From a virus, in UHGV virus genome UHGV-0040432: 39,935 nucleotides of DNA. The stretch is one strand, 5' to 3'. The translations under genes and the position numbers were made by a program. Below the pieces are notes generated by a model. That model saw only the letters and a list, made by a program, of their open reading frames with translations, was not told the DNA's origin and did no database searches. How positions within the stretch are numbered: position 1 is the first letter of the stretch; each line of letters begins with the position of its first letter. This document shows positions 5,923 through 39,885 of the stretch, in pieces.

Positions 5923-6615
5923 TCAGGCGTGGCGTTTGAATGATTGAGATTGGCTTATCATTACCTTCCCAAAAATGTAAAAACGGTGTTCGTTTGTCTC
6001 ATCCACAGACCATTCTCTATATTTTGGGTTATCCGATATCACCAACAACTTATCAGGTATCATCTGTAATCGTTTGACGTAAATTTTATCATCAAAACCA
6101 AATACATATATTCCATCACCATCGAATTCATGAATAGAGATATCAACGAAGAGAAGATCACCAGGTTCGATAGTCTCAGCCATACTGTCGCCTCGAACGT
6201 TGATTACTTTTACTTGATCTGCCGTTCTTCCGCCGAACATCGCTAGCGCACGTTCATTGTTGTATTCGATTGACCTGATGACATCAATAATATCGCTGCC
6301 TTGAATAAAGCCACCACCAGCGCTGGCACTTACATCAAGAATCTCCACTCTAAACACAGATCCATCTCCAGAATGTGGGTTACTACCACTGTATTCACAT
6401 ACAGTAGTTTTATTTCCGCCTGGAGTAAATAGATCAGCAACGCTAACGCCTAAAGCTTGAGCATATTTGCTAAGTGATTGTTCAGTAAATGACTTCTGTT
6501 TGCCGGTTTCTACGCGCGAGATGTTAGCTCCGTCGACACCAACGGCTTCAGCAAGATCAGCGATTTTTAGACCCTTCGCTGTGCGAAGTTCTCTTATGCG
6601 GTTTCCTATGTTCAT
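5923..6615 (-). CDS. cI: cI-like repressor (N-terminal HTH, C-terminal S24 LexA-type peptidase domain)
   Basis: HTH segment IRELRTAKGLKIADLAEAVGV and GDSM serine motif with downstream Lys. Start set at the ATG giving MNIGNRIREL; track ORF begins at an upstream TTG (6678). Confidence 0.8.
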   Translation of the reverse strand: MNIGNRIRELRTAKGLKIADLAEAVGVDGANISRVETGKQKSFTEQSLSKYAQALGVSVADLFTPGGNKTTVCEYSGSNPHSGDGSVFRVEILDVSASAGGGFIQGSDIIDVIRSIEYNNERALAMFGGRTADQVKVINVRGDSMAETIEPGDLLFVDISIHEFDGDGIYVFGFDDKIYVKRLQMIPDKLLVISDNPKYREWSVDETNEHRFYIFGKVMISQSQSFKRHA

Positions 6616-6635
6616 GCGTCTATTACATGTTTTTT

Positions 6636-6698
6636 TTGCGTGATGTGCAAAGCAACTTGCGCAAGTCGTACGTTCCAATTAATATGCGTATTACGCAA
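6636..6698 (+). promoter_or_regulatory. OR region: PR promoter overlapping three operator-like palindromes
   Basis: PR -35 TTGCGC (6657..6662), 17-nt spacer, -10 TAATAT (6680..6685); operators at 6636..6650, about 6655..6671 and 6684..6698. Confidence 0.6.
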
Positions 6699-14398: not shown

Positions 14399-14427
14399 TA
14401 AACCCGCCGATGAGCGGGTTTTTTTAT
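14399..14427 (+). terminator. Strong intrinsic terminator (tR'-like)
   Basis: AAACCCGC-cgatga-GCGGGTTT hairpin followed by T6. Confidence 0.8.
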
Positions 14428-14547
14428 GGCAAATCAGTCATGCACGGCGCATAAAGGCGCTGGCGGTCGCAGAATGGAATTCTTCTCTTGCTGGTATCAC
14501 CAACCAGAGTTATCTGTATGTCACGCAACTAATTTTAGGTAAAAGAC

Positions 14548-14889: not shown

Positions 14890-15942
14890 ATGAAAAATAC
14901 TGTAAAAATAAACAGTGCTGAGTTAATCAACGCTGATAGCCTGCATTACGTCGCCACCCTCCCGGATAACTCTATTGATCTGATAGTTACGGATCCGCCG
15001 TACTTCAAAGTGAAGCCCAACGGCTGGGACAACCAATGGAAGGGGGACGAGGACTACTTACGCTGGCTTGATAGCTGTCTGGCTGAGTATGCTCGCGTTC
15101 TTAAATCTGCTGGCAGCATTTACCTGTTTTGCGGTCACCGACTGGCCTCAGATATAGAGATTATGATGCGTGCCCGGTTCAACGTTTTGAATCACATCAT
15201 TTGGGCAAAACCATCGGGCCGTTGGAATGGATGTAATAAAGAAAGCCTGCGTGCGTACTTTCCATCTACGGAACGGATTTTGTTTGCTGAGCACTATCTT
15301 GGGCCGTACACAGGTAAAGAGGATGTTTACGAAAGGAAAAGCACAGAGCTAAAGCAGCACATTATGACGCCGCTGATTGATTACTTCCGTAATGCCCGTG
15401 AATCACTGGGTGTCAGCTCGAAAGAAATAGCTGAGGCAACCGGAAAGAAAAACATGGCGTCACACTGGTTTGGTGCAAGCCAATGGCAACTACCAAATGA
15501 AGTGGACTATAGAAAATTGCAGGAACTGTTCACGCGGATCGCTATCGATAAGCACATTCAGCAGAAGCTTGAACATCCTCACCATCAGCTGGTAGCCACC
15601 TATCAGTCATTAAACCGCAAGTATTCAGAATTGCTGGAGGAATACAAAACCCTCCGGCGCTGCTTCTCTGTTTCCGCTCTTGTTCCGTATACCGACGTAT
15701 GGACGCATAAGCCTGTGCAGTTTTATCCAGGCAAACATCCATGCGAAAAACCTGCCGACATGCTGAAGCAGATCATTAGCGCCAGCAGCAGACCAGGGGA
15801 TATCGTTGCCGATTTCTTTATGGGCTCAGGTTCAACTGTGAAAGCTGCAATAGAACTTGGTCGTCGGGCGATCGGGGTAGAACTGGAAGCTGACAGATTT
15901 ATTCAGACCACCGAAGAGGTGGAAAAATTGATCAAAACATAA
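14890..15942 (+). CDS. DNA methyltransferase, beta-class N6-adenine/N4-cytosine type
   Basis: DPPY motif near the N-terminus and FFMGSGST (FxGxG) near the C-terminus, the permuted order typical of beta-class amino-methyltransferases. Confidence 0.75.
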   Translation: MKNTVKINSAELINADSLHYVATLPDNSIDLIVTDPPYFKVKPNGWDNQWKGDEDYLRWLDSCLAEYARVLKSAGSIYLFCGHRLASDIEIMMRARFNVLNHIIWAKPSGRWNGCNKESLRAYFPSTERILFAEHYLGPYTGKEDVYERKSTELKQHIMTPLIDYFRNARESLGVSSKEIAEATGKKNMASHWFGASQWQLPNEVDYRKLQELFTRIAIDKHIQQKLEHPHHQLVATYQSLNRKYSELLEEYKTLRRCFSVSALVPYTDVWTHKPVQFYPGKHPCEKPADMLKQIISASSRPGDIVADFFMGSGSTVKAAIELGRRAIGVELEADRFIQTTEEVEKLIKT

Positions 15943-34919: not shown

Positions 34920-35472
34920 GTTTCGATCTCTGCTTCCTCCAGGCGCATTTCATGAAGAGCGGGCGCAGGAGCAGGCCAGCGCTGAGCAAATCGCCACCCT
35001 CGATACCAACATGGTGCGCAAGTCCAAAAATCCTGACACCTGTCCGGCGCATCTTCTCCCCTGGCTGGCCTGGGAGCATGCCGTTGATTTCTGGGATGAC
35101 GGCTGGACAGAGGCGCAGAAGCGACAGGTGATAAAAGATGCCGCTTATGTTCATCAGCACAGGGGAACGGCCGGGGCGGTACGCCGTTCTCTCGGGTCTG
35201 TGAACCTGCCCACAACCGTGGTTGAGTGGTGGGAAGACACGCCGCGCGCTGAACCTTACACCTTCCGGATCGAAGTACAGAGCAGTGAGGGGGTCAGCGA
35301 CGCTCTCTATCATCAGATCCGCCAGCTCACCGATCGGGCCAAGAACCTGCGCAGCTATCTGAGCAGAATCGATGTGATGGCGAATGTGGGTATGGACGGG
35401 GCTTTTTATATTTCGGGTGCGACAACAGCGCATATCGATGTGGACATTTTTACCGGGGAATCTCATGGCTGA
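34909..35472 (+). CDS. Baseplate/tail protein I (gpI-like)
   Basis: 187-aa ORF between the J-like gene and the tail fibre gene. Confidence 0.65.
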   Translation: MTAKFRSLLPPGAFHEERAQEQASAEQIATLDTNMVRKSKNPDTCPAHLLPWLAWEHAVDFWDDGWTEAQKRQVIKDAAYVHQHRGTAGAVRRSLGSVNLPTTVVEWWEDTPRAEPYTFRIEVQSSEGVSDALYHQIRQLTDRAKNLRSYLSRIDVMANVGMDGAFYISGATTAHIDVDIFTGESHG

Positions 35473-36868
35473 TTACTACTCAATTATCACTAACCGGGGT
35501 AAAGAACTGGAAGCGGAGGCGCTGGCCAGTGGTCGCCTGATTGTACTGACTCACTTTGTGGTGGGGGACAGTAATGGCAAGCAGGTTAAACCCGATCCGT
35601 CGCAAATCCGGTTGATCAATGAAACGTACCGGGGAGATATCGCTGAGCTGGTGGTGTCACCGGAGCAGTCCACGCAGTTAATGGCAAAAATCGTTCTGCC
35701 GACCGGGGTTGGTGGATTCACCGTTCGCGAAGTCGGTTTAATGACTGACGCCGGAGAGCTTTACGCGGTGGCAAACTGCCCATCGATCGATAAGCCGGTT
35801 GGTGGTGTCAGCGTTAACATGCAGTTTCGCCTGGCGGTATCAGATACCTCAAATATCACGCTGAATGTTGCTACAGGTGACGGCTTATTCCTGCGCATTG
35901 ACCAGAACCTGAAAGAGATAAAAGCGCGGGGCGCGGAAGCACAAAAAACGTCGCGTGAATCCATTGGTGTCCTCGATGGCACGACACAACAAAGAGGGCT
36001 GGTTCAACTTAACAGTGCGGTGAACAGCACTAGTGAAACGCAGGCTGCCACCCCTGCCGCAGTTAAAATCGCAATGGATAATGCGAATGCGCGGCTGGCT
36101 AAAGACCGGAACGGCGGTGACATTCCGAATGTCGCATTATTTCTACAAAACCTTGGTATAGACCGCATCGACCAGGACTCAAACGAAACACGCATCTGGT
36201 CGCCTGATGGAAAAAACTACATTTTTGTTCAAAACGGAGTCTGGGGTGCATATTCAATCAATTCTCCCGCCGGAGCATTATCTCTGGGGTTAGGGTTTGG
36301 CGGGACGGGCGCTACAGACGCTGCGGGGGCAAGGACCAATCTTGGGTTAGGAGACTCTTCTACGCGAGATGTCGGCACTGTATCTGGAACTGTTGCTGCT
36401 GGTGATGATAGCCGTATCACAGGCGCAATGCAGCAAAACCAAAATGGTAATGACATCCCTGATAAAGCTGAGTTCAGAAGTAACATCGGGCTTGGCTCTG
36501 CCGCAACAAGAGCGGTCGGGAACGGCGCAAACCAGATCCCTGACATGAGTTTCTTTTCTGCAGCACTGGCTATCAATGGATGGGCAAAACTGCCAAACGG
36601 GCTAATCATTCAGCAGGGAACATCTACAGCAGCCACTCCATCAAGCCCTGATGTTCTGGTTAACTTCCCAATTCCATTCCCAACAGGGGTTTTACATATT
36701 GGTGAGCACGACTCAAATGGCGGTCTGTCTATGACACTCTGGCAGCTCAATAACATTACAAGAACCGCTTTTTATGCCGGTGCTCTTGGTGGCGTTACTC
36801 GTGGAAATACAACCATTCGGGCTCTTGCCACGTCTGCTGCATGTAACTGGTTTGCAATAGGATATTAA
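35465..36868 (+). CDS. Tail fibre protein (P2 gpH-like N-terminus, Gly-rich repetitive C-terminus)
   Basis: N-terminal segment REVGLMTDAGELYAVANCP resembles the conserved gpH region; start at the ATG overlapping the upstream stop. Confidence 0.75.
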   Translation: MADYYSIITNRGKELEAEALASGRLIVLTHFVVGDSNGKQVKPDPSQIRLINETYRGDIAELVVSPEQSTQLMAKIVLPTGVGGFTVREVGLMTDAGELYAVANCPSIDKPVGGVSVNMQFRLAVSDTSNITLNVATGDGLFLRIDQNLKEIKARGAEAQKTSRESIGVLDGTTQQRGLVQLNSAVNSTSETQAATPAAVKIAMDNANARLAKDRNGGDIPNVALFLQNLGIDRIDQDSNETRIWSPDGKNYIFVQNGVWGAYSINSPAGALSLGLGFGGTGATDAAGARTNLGLGDSSTRDVGTVSGTVAAGDDSRITGAMQQNQNGNDIPDKAEFRSNIGLGSAATRAVGNGANQIPDMSFFSAALAINGWAKLPNGLIIQQGTSTAATPSSPDVLVNFPIPFPTGVLHIGEHDSNGGLSMTLWQLNNITRTAFYAGALGGVTRGNTTIRALATSAACNWFAIGY

Positions 36869-36869
36869 G

Positions 36870-37298
36870 ATGAACAAATATTTATATGACGCTAGGACGA
36901 ATGCCTTTTACCCATTAAGCCTTCAGGGGGATTATGAAGCGGCCAACACCTGGCCGGCGAGTGGTGTGGAAGTTGATGATGACGTTTTTAAAACATTTCA
37001 ATCACCACCTCCGGGTAAAATGATGGTGGCCGGTAAAGATGGCTATCCGGCATGGGCTGATGTTCCTCCACCATCCAAAGAAAACATTGTTGCTGCCGCT
37101 GAAATTGAGAAACAGTCCAAGATTGATCAAGCTAACGACTATATGAACAGTAAGCAATGGCCCGGGAAGGCCGCTATGGGGCGATTGAAAGATTCAGAAA
37201 AGGTGCAATACAACGCCTGGCTGGATTATTTGGATGAACTGGAGGCTGTGGATACAGCGGCTGCGCCAGACATTAAATGGCCTGAAAAACCAGAATAG
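36870..37298 (+). CDS. Tail fibre assembly protein (Tfa, gpG-like)
   Basis: 142-aa ORF directly after the fibre gene with Tfa-like composition. Confidence 0.7.
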   Translation: MNKYLYDARTNAFYPLSLQGDYEAANTWPASGVEVDDDVFKTFQSPPPGKMMVAGKDGYPAWADVPPPSKENIVAAAEIEKQSKIDQANDYMNSKQWPGKAAMGRLKDSEKVQYNAWLDYLDELEAVDTAAAPDIKWPEKPE

Positions 37299-37367
37299 GA
37301 ACGTTTACGAAAATGAATATTTCAGGTGCAAATGGCATGATCCCGGCTTTTAGCGAAGGGATTGATC

Positions 37368-37919
37368 ATGCTGATAGGCTATGTACGGGTGTCAACAAAT
37401 GACCAGAACACAGCATTGCAGAGAAACGCGCTTGAGTGTGCAGGATGTGAGCTGATATTCGAAGACAAGATAAGTGGAAAAACGTCAGACCGACCAGGCT
37501 TAAAAAAGGTGCTCAGAACATTATCAGAAGGTGACACGCTGGTGGTCTGGAAGCTGGATCGTCTCGGTCGTAGTATGCGGCATCTTGTCGTGTTGGTCGA
37601 AGAAATGAGGGAACGCGGCATAAACTTCCGTAGCCTGACCGACAGTATAGATACCTCCACACCGATGGGACGCTTTTTCTTTCATGTCATGGGAGCGCTT
37701 GCGGAGATGGAGAGAGAGCTTATTGTTGAGCGAACACGGGCTGGTTTAGCAGTTGCGCGCGAAGATGGTCGGATCGGCGGCAGACGGCCAAAGTTAACTG
37801 CTGAAGAGTGGGCTCAGGCTGGAAGGTTGATTGCTGCTGGAGAGTCACGAAAACGTGTGGCTATAATTTATGATGTAGGGGTGTCAACGCTATACAAAAA
37901 ATTTCCTGCGCGGTGTTGA
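37368..37919 (+). CDS. Serine recombinase, DNA invertase (Hin/Gin/Cin/Pin family)
   Basis: N-terminal MLIGYVRVSTNDQ with catalytic Ser; C-terminal HTH; GAAGGG Shine-Dalgarno 8 nt upstream. Confidence 0.85.
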   Translation: MLIGYVRVSTNDQNTALQRNALECAGCELIFEDKISGKTSDRPGLKKVLRTLSEGDTLVVWKLDRLGRSMRHLVVLVEEMRERGINFRSLTDSIDTSTPMGRFFFHVMGALAEMERELIVERTRAGLAVAREDGRIGGRRPKLTAEEWAQAGRLIAAGESRKRVAIIYDVGVSTLYKKFPARC

Positions 37920-38047: not shown

Positions 38048-38290
38048 TTAATCTGAAACCAGCCACATATCAGCCTCTTCAAACATTTCCTGAACAGTAC
38101 GGCTTATCTGTTCCTTCTCATGCTTGCTGGCGTCAGTGTTGATCGCCGGCAGTGTCATCATCGGTTTAACCCGAACATCAGCATCGGGGAAGATCCGGTG
38201 AACCCTCTTACTCAATTCGCCCAGAATGATATCTTTTGCACCAGGCAGACCATCAAAATTCCTTTTGTCATAAACGAGTTCCACGAACAT
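38048..38290 (-). CDS. dinI: DinI-like protein (DinI/MsgA family)
   Basis: 80 aa; pattern LxGELSKRxHRxFPDADVRVKP ... QEMFEEADMWLVSD matches DinI as recalled. Confidence 0.7.
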   Translation of the reverse strand: MFVELVYDKRNFDGLPGAKDIILGELSKRVHRIFPDADVRVKPMMTLPAINTDASKHEKEQISRTVQEMFEEADMWLVSD

Positions 38291-38305
38291 TGCTTATTGC
38301 TCCTT

Positions 38306-38325
38306 TACTGGATGGATATACAGTA
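38306..38325. promoter_or_regulatory. LexA (SOS) box between divergent dinI-like and umuD'-like genes
   Basis: TACTGGATGGATATACAGTA, i.e. CTGG-N8-ACAG, one mismatch from the CTGT-N8-ACAG core. Confidence 0.65.
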
Positions 38326-38368
38326 TTTATACTGTGTTTTTATCCGGTATTCAAGAGAGGGCGTAAAC

Positions 38369-38758
38369 ATGGGCTTTCCTTCACCTGCGGCAGATTATGT
38401 TGAAACACGAATCTCCCTCGATCAGCAGTTAATCAGCCAGCCTGCAGCGACTTATTTCATGCGGGCATCGCGTTCACATTTCAGGGAAGGGATAATCCAG
38501 GGAGCGTTGCTTGTTGTGGATGCGTCACTTACTGCCTGCGATGGTTCACTGCTGATATGTGCAATCGACGGGGAATTCAGGATCAAGCGATACCGAACTC
38601 ACCCTCAGCCCCACCTGATAAATCTGGAGAACGGGAGAAGGGAAGCGCTGCCAGTAGATGATGACGCTTACAGTTCTGCACCCGCTATATTCGGGGTGAT
38701 CACGTACATCATTAATGATGCTAGGAATGGAGAGTTCGACGATTGCCCAGTTATGTAA
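38369..38758 (+). CDS. UmuD'-like protein (S24 family; P1 HumD-type, lacking the N-terminal cleavable tail)
   Basis: Starts M-GFPSPAADYVE, aligning with the residue that follows the UmuD self-cleavage site; GEFRIKR retains the Lys region; strong SD upstream. No umuC-like gene follows. Confidence 0.65.
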   Translation: MGFPSPAADYVETRISLDQQLISQPAATYFMRASRSHFREGIIQGALLVVDASLTACDGSLLICAIDGEFRIKRYRTHPQPHLINLENGRREALPVDDDAYSSAPAIFGVITYIINDARNGEFDDCPVM

Positions 38759-38760
38759 TG

Positions 38761-38791
38761 AAAAAAAAGCCCGTTTATACGGGCTTTCGTT
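38761..38791. terminator. Bidirectional intrinsic terminator between the umuD'-like gene and the integrase gene
   Basis: A8 run, AAGCCCG-tttata-CGGGCTT hairpin, T-rich tail. Confidence 0.7.
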
Positions 38792-39885
38792 TAGTCATTT
38801 TTTCTGGACTTTTGCAATTGTTCAAGCCTTACATGAAGTGATTTAGGGAATAGCTCTGTGTAAACTTGCCACAGTACATTCAGCGACCTGTGGCCAGTAA
38901 CTTGGGCCACTTCCTCTATACTGAATCCAGCTTCAAAAAGTCTGCTTGCGCCTTCCCTTCTAAGGTCATGATATCTTAGATCCTCAATTCCAAGAGCACT
39001 TCTTACCCTTTGGAATCCTGCCGTTACGGAACTGCTTATATAAGGGAATATTAGCTCTGACTTACGCGGCTGGCGCTGGACAATATCCCAGGCTTCTCCG
39101 AGTAAAGCTACATTCATGTGGTTCCCTTCTTTTTTACGTGGATCCTTCCTATCTCTCACCAGCACTGATTTTTGTTTTTCATCGATATCATCCCATCGCA
39201 GACGACAAACCTCGCCAATGCGCATGCACGATAAAACCGAAAACATCAGAATATCGACGAATGGGATTTTTGATCCCCGCCTTTGTGAACGTTGCTTCAG
39301 GCCTTCGATCAGCATGTCTAATTCTTCAGATGCTGGTCGACGACTACGGCGATTTGATTTTCCAATTAGCCCCAATTTAAGGAGATGAGGTCGCGCCTCT
39401 TTTGCTGGATTGCTAGTATAGTTAATGCCATACACTGGCTTTGCACAATCAAGCACGCTTCCAAGATAGCTGACGTCATGGCTTACGGTCGCTGGCCCGG
39501 CTCCTGCATTATTTCGCAATCGACAGTGCTCTATTACGTCATTTGCGGTTAATGACAACAGGGGGATAGCTGCAATGTCGCAGTCAACGAGCATATTAAG
39601 AACATAGCTTTTTGTTCGCCCCGCTTTGCCACCAGCGTTTGGATCATTGATATATTTTTGCAACAAATCACGGACTGTTATTCCGGTAGCATCATCAGAT
39701 GATGGGAGACCATAAAGATCCAGTTCCATAACCCTCTGGGCTCCCCATGTTTTAGCATGCGCCTGTTTTGGGAAGGTTTTACTTTCTCTGAATGTGATAA
39801 CGCCTTTTTCCTTAATTAACACAGTACAACGGTAGCGTGGAGTGCCATCAGATTTTAGTCGTTTCTCTATGTTATAGTATGCCAT
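38791..39885 (-). CDS. int: Tyrosine recombinase, phage integrase
   Basis: 364 aa; C-terminal catalytic region with HDLRR motif and downstream Tyr (LWQVYTE); N-terminal SAM-like domain. Confidence 0.85.
   Translation of the reverse strand: MAYYNIEKRLKSDGTPRYRCTVLIKEKGVITFRESKTFPKQAHAKTWGAQRVMELDLYGLPSSDDATGITVRDLLQKYINDPNAGGKAGRTKSYVLNMLVDCDIAAIPLLSLTANDVIEHCRLRNNAGAGPATVSHDVSYLGSVLDCAKPVYGINYTSNPAKEARPHLLKLGLIGKSNRRSRRPASEELDMLIEGLKQRSQRRGSKIPFVDILMFSVLSCMRIGEVCRLRWDDIDEKQKSVLVRDRKDPRKKEGNHMNVALLGEAWDIVQRQPRKSELIFPYISSSVTAGFQRVRSALGIEDLRYHDLRREGASRLFEAGFSIEEVAQVTGHRSLNVLWQVYTELFPKSLHVRLEQLQKSRKND

Follow-up and report, generated by a model that had tools for sequence, protein, structure and literature searches.

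A Predicted LexA-Controlled dinI–humD Pair beside the Integrase Gene of a Temperate Phage Is an Ordinary Prophage Accessory Cassette

Introduction

At positions 38048–38758 of the viral genome UHGV-0040432 (39,935 nucleotides; this whole stretch is called the window here), two short genes resembling dinI and umuD' are transcribed away from each other beside an integrase gene. The locus raises the question of whether such a pair is a working LexA-controlled unit or the residue of a umuDC operon, what its two products would do in a damaged lysogen, and how unusual the arrangement is. The original prediction, made from the sequence of the window, had proposed a compact SOS-responsive module. We followed up this proposal computationally. 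The phage that carries the pair is a Citrobacter-type temperate phage with lambdoid regulation and a contractile tail.

Results and Discussion

Gene Content and Start Sites

Divergent dinI-like and umuD'-like genes are present, as originally predicted, on either side of a 78-bp gap (38291–38368), and the predicted proximity to the integrase gene is also borne out, with the integrase gene convergent to the umuD'-like gene (Table 1). Profile searches against the DinI and S24 families, which had been suggested as a check, return matches in both cases. The DinI-like product matches Pfam PF06183 (E 5.1e-21; 75.2 bits, cutoff 24.2) and PHROG 189, "RecA filament binding protein DinI" (4e-21), and, when aligned to 1GHH, the structure of E. 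coli DinI, preserves the acidic helix at the C terminus. Through this helix, it would be expected to bind RecA filaments. Its score against the NCBIfam DinI equivalog NF007893 is 42.8 bits, far under the cutoff of 111, indicating that the gene belongs with the phage/MsgA-type paralogues rather than being the chromosomal orthologue and that its effect on RecA may differ.

The product of the second gene matches the NCBIfam HumD equivalog NF051876 at 226.8 bits (cutoff 120) over positions 1–129 of 129, and we refer to it as HumD. It also matches Pfam Peptidase_S24 (PF00717; 34.8 bits, cutoff 23.3), PHROG 811, "UmuD-like protein", and UmuD' crystal structures (E 4.8e-24). Residue 2 of HumD is aligned to residue 1 of UmuD', which is Gly25 of full-length UmuD, so HumD corresponds to Met followed by mature UmuD'. 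The N-terminal arm with its Ala/Cys-Gly cleavage site is absent and the protein begins at Gly, which makes it a UmuD'-like product rather than a self-cleaving precursor. This alignment agrees with the earlier suggestion that the protein starts at the mature UmuD' position and would not need self-cleavage.

In some gene predictions, this protein is 148 aa or longer (P0001, P0025, and P0079), and humD has no umuC behind it. These two facts could be accommodated if the open reading frame were a 5'-truncated umuDC remnant, or if it started at ATG 38312 to give 148 aa, the LexA-like sequence being coincidental. We consider this reading highly improbable. ATG 38312 is located inside the LexA box, upstream of the predicted -10 element, and the intergenic lengths of relatives differ by 1–2 nt, which indicates that the 148-aa database forms are gene-calling artifacts. 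The MGFPSP start, in contrast, is found in 99 of the 120 homologues listed and stays the same behind upstream sequences of four unrelated kinds: the compact intergenic region, the overlapping ORF of HK140, the P1 locus, and phiKO2, where the start codon is GTG. A curated 129-position model is matched end to end, and the LexA box scores far beyond chance, as described below.

Selection on the coding sequences bears on the same point. The median dN/dS of humD is 0.059 at a dS of 0.41 (73 distinct relatives), and that of dinI is 0.10 (63 relatives). With such strong purifying selection on both, neither gene is a pseudogene; a truncated umuDC pseudogene, which had been named as the finding that would speak against the original prediction, is not what the substitution pattern of humD indicates. 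Taken together, dN/dS, intergenic length changes, and start conservation led us to reject both the pseudogene reading and a start at 38312.

A tblastn search with E. coli UmuC found no umuC in the 39.9-kb window (best E 3.4), consistent with the predicted absence of a umuC-like partner. The large early-region ORFs of the window encode methylases, a DUF968 protein, Q, an antirepressor, and a CI-like repressor, with no umuC among them. Downstream of humD there is a putative terminator and then the convergent integrase gene rather than an operon with umuC. The GC-rich hairpin at this junction (RNA fold -15.3 kcal/mol, z = -4.6) is probably a bidirectional terminator. In a PADLOC search, neither the DinI-like protein nor HumD matched a defense system.

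Table 1. Coordinates of the dinI–humD cassette and its flanking features in the window
Feature	Coordinates	Strand	Details	Basis
dinI-family gene	38048-38290	minus	80 aa, stop codon within coordinates	Pfam PF06183
Shine-Dalgarno-like AAGGAG for dinI	38300-38305	minus	9 nt before ATG	read from sequence
Predicted sigma-70 promoter, humD	38304-38333	plus	-35 TTTACT 38304-38309, 18-nt spacer, -10 TATACT 38328-38333	9/12 consensus matches
LexA box 1, TACTGGATGGATATACAGTA	38306-38325		CTG-N10-CAG; CTGG-N8-ACAG at 38308-38323	PWM 24.3
Predicted sigma-70 promoter, dinI	38326-38354	minus	-35 TTGAAT 38354-38349, 17-nt spacer, -10 TATAAA 38331-38326	9/12 consensus matches
Box 2, degenerate LexA-like, TACTGTGTTTTTATCCGGTA	38330-38349		CAG changed to CGG	PWM 16.3, fourth best in window
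Shine-Dalgarno GAGG for humD	38357-38360	plus	8 nt before ATG	read from sequence
humD-family gene	38369-38758	plus	129 aa, stop codon within coordinates; ATG at 38369	
GC-rich hairpin	38766-38787		between stop codons of humD and integrase gene	terminator scan, minus strand
Integrase gene	38791-39885	minus	convergent with humD	

The Shared Operator

The near-consensus SOS box expected between the divergent start codons is box 1 in Table 1. We scored candidate sites with a position weight matrix (PWM) derived from a set of about 29 E. coli SOS boxes; the absolute scores are approximate. On this scale, box 1 is the top site of the window and lies above the median of the training sites, and in 300 shuffles of the window no site scored as high as 20. 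The site is a CTG-N10-CAG palindrome with an AT-rich spacer, overlaps a predicted promoter, and stands 43 nt before the humD ATG. It is found in all of the related dinI–humD loci examined (84/84), in which substitutions hardly ever touch the CTG or CAG triplet and variation falls mostly in the spacer. It is also kept across the roughly 30% DNA divergence that separates the window from phiKO2, where an annotated lexA site occupies the same position.

Box 2 follows 4 bp from box 1. In about 11 related loci, the position that is altered in the window reads CCAG, giving a full consensus with PWM scores of 21–24, and in phiKO2 the box is absent. Its occurrence in full form in some relatives and absence from phiKO2 suggest that box 2 is lineage-specific and probably weak in the window phage. 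The original description of a single LexA box is therefore accurate for the deeply conserved core, box 1 being the only such box in phiKO2, and inaccurate here, where the degenerate second box is also present.

The promoters in Table 1 were predicted by a consensus scan, and both are just 9/12 matches; transcription is predicted to start at about 38340 for humD and at about 38319 for dinI. As placed, the -10 hexamers of humD and dinI would overlap on opposite strands, as annotated for phiKO2, and box 1 would cover the humD -35 element and spacer together with the expected dinI start site, again matching the layout annotated for phiKO2. With the best LexA-box match of the window in the 78-bp gap, the compact module looks LexA-controlled, as originally proposed.

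We consider it probable that the locus is an autonomous SOS-inducible accessory ("moron") cassette, in which a protein that binds RecA filaments and a pre-activated accessory subunit of Pol V are expressed together under LexA repression. In the lysogen, LexA on 38306–38325 would block both overlapping promoters, possibly with the help of the weak box 2. DNA damage would trigger RecA-stimulated self-cleavage of LexA and release dinI and humD together. The DinI paralogue would then bind RecA filaments and modulate their coprotease activity, while HumD, translated in an already "processed" form, would form dimers and join host UmuC in translesion synthesis of the Pol V type, with no need to wait for the slow cleavage that UmuD undergoes in a RecA-dependent manner. 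The proposed HumD–UmuC partnership is drawn by analogy with the HumD protein of P1, which is 73% identical. More speculatively, the two products may cooperate, with DinI blocking the processing of host UmuD and HumD bypassing the block.

Active Site and C-Terminal Tail of HumD

The original prediction had pointed to divergence of the GDSM region, and RSHF does stand in place of the UmuD GDSM motif in HumD. The substitution is real, but it probably does not amount to loss of the active site, since Ser36 of HumD most likely aligns to Ser60 of UmuD, and Lys73 aligns to Lys97. Both a family-profile alignment (47 sequences versus PDB chains) and a MAFFT alignment introduce a one-residue deletion at Gly58, which brings Ser36 to Ser60, and both align Lys73 to Lys97. 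A single-sequence phmmer alignment instead puts His37 at Ser60; we set it aside and preferred the family-profile alignment. In the 106 members of the family, residue 36 is a Ser (75 members) or a Thr (30 members), with a single Ala, and every 85%-identity lineage has Ser or Thr there. Lys73 is kept in 102 of the 106, and the GDSM motif is not kept. These patterns suggest that HumD has probably kept the Ser-Lys catalytic pair, be it for a structural or a catalytic reason, and the Thr variants speak against a strict catalytic need. AlphaFold run on a 43-sequence HumD alignment, which is too shallow, gave an unusable model with a mean pLDDT of 46.8.

Residues 115–129 of HumD (38711–38755) form an acidic tail, INDARxGEFDDCPVM, that is conserved in HumD proteins and absent from E. 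coli UmuD'.

The altered motif and the HumD-specific tail are both features that would fit a protein acting to restrain mutagenesis, whether by titrating UmuC, by forming heterodimers with host UmuD or UmuD', or as a replisome checkpoint factor, and the P1 humD gene adjoins hot, which encodes a homologue of Pol III theta. We regard this reading as doubtful. In the work of McLenigan et al. (1999), P1 HumD reportedly complemented umuD functions, bringing back both mutagenesis and survival after UV, and associated with UmuC and with RecA filaments; complementation is reported to have been good only on overexpression. The window protein has 73% of its residues in common with P1 HumD, which speaks against a restraining role.

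The same features of HumD enter into a further possibility, that a DinI paralogue and a ready-made UmuD', recurrently paired at a single operator, together constitute a phage-run override of the host mutagenesis checkpoint. Here, DinI may keep RecA from promoting the processing of host UmuD and perhaps also delay cleavage of the prophage's own repressor; HumD, needing no processing, may take over UmuC; and the Ser/Thr-Lys pair and acidic tail may give HumD an activity that UmuD' lacks, for example on S24 proteins in trans. Taken as a whole, we think this scenario improbable. If it were true, the G/A polymorphism in box 2 (position 38346) would set different SOS thresholds among prophage variants.

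Prevalence of the Arrangement

The claim of the original prediction that such a module is not commonly noted in lambdoid prophages is wrong. The phiKO2 GenBank record contains it, as does HK140 with one additional ORF. When 5426 complete E. coli genomes were searched, 203 matched the region, and in 33 of these the match covered at least 80% of its length. PGAP labels the two products as "HumD family translesion DNA polymerase" and as a DinI family protein. E. coli Nissle 1917 is among the matching genomes (95% identity), and this member of the lineage would be convenient for simple genetic tests. Relatives also occur on hundreds of IMG/VR contigs, and a protein search returned 562 clusters at 90% identity, with the exact HumD protein of the window in a 1430-member cluster drawn mostly from Citrobacter.

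We surveyed 260 HumD loci, encoding 160 distinct proteins in at least 14 lineages, and counted a LexA box wherever a PWM score of at least 15 occurred within 450 nt upstream. Such a box is present upstream of humD at 246 of the 260 loci, whereas a divergent dinI gene is present at 120, indicating that LexA control is family-wide and that DinI is a frequent but optional partner. The spacing from box to ATG falls into three classes: 15–19 nt where humD is alone, 43–47 nt in the compact pair with dinI, and 257–285 nt where an extra ORF intervenes. Because about half of the HumD loci lack dinI (those of P1, HK639, and N15 among them), the products of dinI and humD need not act together.

DinI paralogues likewise stand alone in many lambdoid phages (phi80 dinL, mEp237, HK225, and Gifsy), which invites the reading that the cassette mainly tunes the threshold or timing of prophage induction rather than translesion synthesis. 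DinI would then act on RecA filaments, either stabilizing them or lowering their coprotease activity toward the CI-like repressor of the prophage (5923–6678), and HumD would come second, as a passenger or as a factor that modulates host UmuD/UmuC. This repressor has an S24 self-cleavage domain and thus depends on RecA filaments, the dinI paralogues of Salmonella prophages are LexA-regulated (PMC8072944), and the cassette would be expressed exactly while induction is being decided. Such a role for DinI leaves unexplained, however, both the strong purifying selection on HumD (dN/dS 0.059) and the link of HumD to LexA at loci without dinI. We therefore view it as a possible but rather unlikely main function, and one that is compatible with the SOS-inducible accessory cassette proposed above.

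Other Features of the Prophage and Its Relatives

Two further strong LexA-box-like sequences occur elsewhere in the window. The first, CACTGTATTCACATACAGTA (6387–6406; PWM 21.4), lies inside the CI-like repressor gene (5923–6678, minus strand), between the sequences for the HTH and S24 domains. The cI genes of phiNP, Eeyore, and SfII retain its CTG-N10-CAG core, although their flanks are only 71–79% identical. A search for a sigma-70-like promoter near 6387–6406 found none. The second, TACTGTAAAAATAAACAGTG (14898–14917; PWM 22.4), lies over codons 3–9 of an N6/N4 DNA methylase gene (14890–15942, plus strand), with the gene for the Q antiterminator and a hairpin resembling a terminator (near 14400–14430) upstream. 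This site may mark an SOS-controlled methylase moron.

A DNA invertase gene (37362–37919; Resolvase and HTH_7 domains) follows the tail fiber and tail-fiber assembly genes. Neither an inverted alternative fiber set nor long inverted repeats were found in this region (35384–37919). Citrobacter phage Chris1, which is 97% identical, has inverted alternative fiber genes, and the host-range switch of the window phage seems to have lost its second cassette.

In Chris1, the dinI–humD cassette is replaced (locus L103, 30776–32748): a 3' dinI/msgA remnant is followed by a GGDEF/EAL diguanylate cyclase/phosphodiesterase gene and then by the integrase gene. The site of the cassette by the integrase gene is a hotspot for cargo exchange. 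Citrobacter meridianamericanus, the genome of locus L006, contains a second humD copy (locus L013, 4001–4384) that is 57% identical and has internal stop codons, and that appears, by these two properties, to belong to a decaying cassette of a different prophage.

Comparison with Known Systems

The chromosomal genes of E. coli offer the most familiar point of reference. E. coli UmuD is 42% identical to the window HumD over the UmuD' part, and LexA control is shared, being predicted for the window gene. Chromosomal UmuD, however, has a 24-residue arm that is cleaved with the help of RecA, and umuD is cotranscribed with umuC, whereas the window HumD has neither the arm nor a umuC gene beside it. 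Similarly, the chromosomal dinI gene is unlinked to umuDC, while dinI and humD are physical neighbors in the window; the DinI-like product retains the fold and the acidic helix of DinI.

Prophage-borne DinI paralogues are also known from Gifsy-1 through Gifsy-3 of Salmonella. Some of these dinI homologues are reportedly cotranscribed with antirepressor genes (Lemire et al. 2011). In the Gifsy genes, about 19 bp separate a LexA box from the ATG, and damage induction is seen experimentally, nalidixic acid raising the expression of such Salmonella prophage dinI homologues 4.6- to 23-fold (PMC8072944). An adjacent humD is not reported for them in that article.

The resemblance to P1 HumD that had been noted originally is exact: the two proteins are of equal length, share the MGFPSP start and 73% identity, and occur without umuC, and the window protein matches the HumD equivalog over positions 1–129. 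One article (PMC7092418), in which McLenigan et al. 1999 (J Bacteriol 181:7005) is cited, describes P1 HumD as an already activated UmuD. In P1, which is a plasmid prophage, an annotated LexA site likewise serves two divergent genes, lxr and humD, with the box about 19 nt from the humD ATG as compared to 43 nt in the window. A comparison of Lxr with the DinI paralogue found no similarity, so the divergent partner in P1 is a different protein. In N15 (gene 26) and HK639 (gene 28), a HumD-type protein is encoded after the tail fiber gene and the dinI partner is absent; loci of the HK639 type have the LexA box 14–17 nt upstream of humD.

The lambdoid phage HK140 has the same setting as the window, with gp26 (DinI), gp27, and gp28 (UmuD-like) adjoining attP/int between the tail fiber gene and the integrase gene and a LexA-like box adjoining dinI. 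Unlike the window, HK140 has an extra 79-aa ORF, gp27 (PHROG 3893; locus L002, 3322–3561), between the box and humD, and the gp27 stop codon overlaps the humD start. An ORF of about 79 aa at this position would make the unit a three-gene SOS cassette, and about half of the close relatives of the window (loci L008–L102) carry this longer form. Neither HK140 gp27 nor P1 Lxr has a significant match in Pfam.

Finally, the arrangement in the window is closely paralleled in phiKO2, a linear plasmid-prophage of Klebsiella. Its genes 22 (DinI) and 23 (UmuD-like) are likewise divergent, with about 78 nt between their start codons and an annotated lexA site at the matching offset, and their -10 signals overlap, as is predicted for the window. 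In both phages, the cassette comes directly after the tail genes and has terminators on both sides. The proteins are 69% (HumD) and 75% (DinI) identical to those of the window. The phiKO2 locus differs in the GTG start codon of humD, in the absence of the second LexA-like box, and in abutting partition genes rather than an integrase gene, as follows from its being a linear plasmid prophage. The dinI–humD cassette of the window is thus a real but ordinary prophage accessory cassette and nothing new, its arrangement being widespread and already known from the annotation of phiKO2. Overall, it illustrates, in a clean and well-conserved form, the way in which temperate phages connect accessory genes to the SOS regulon of the host.
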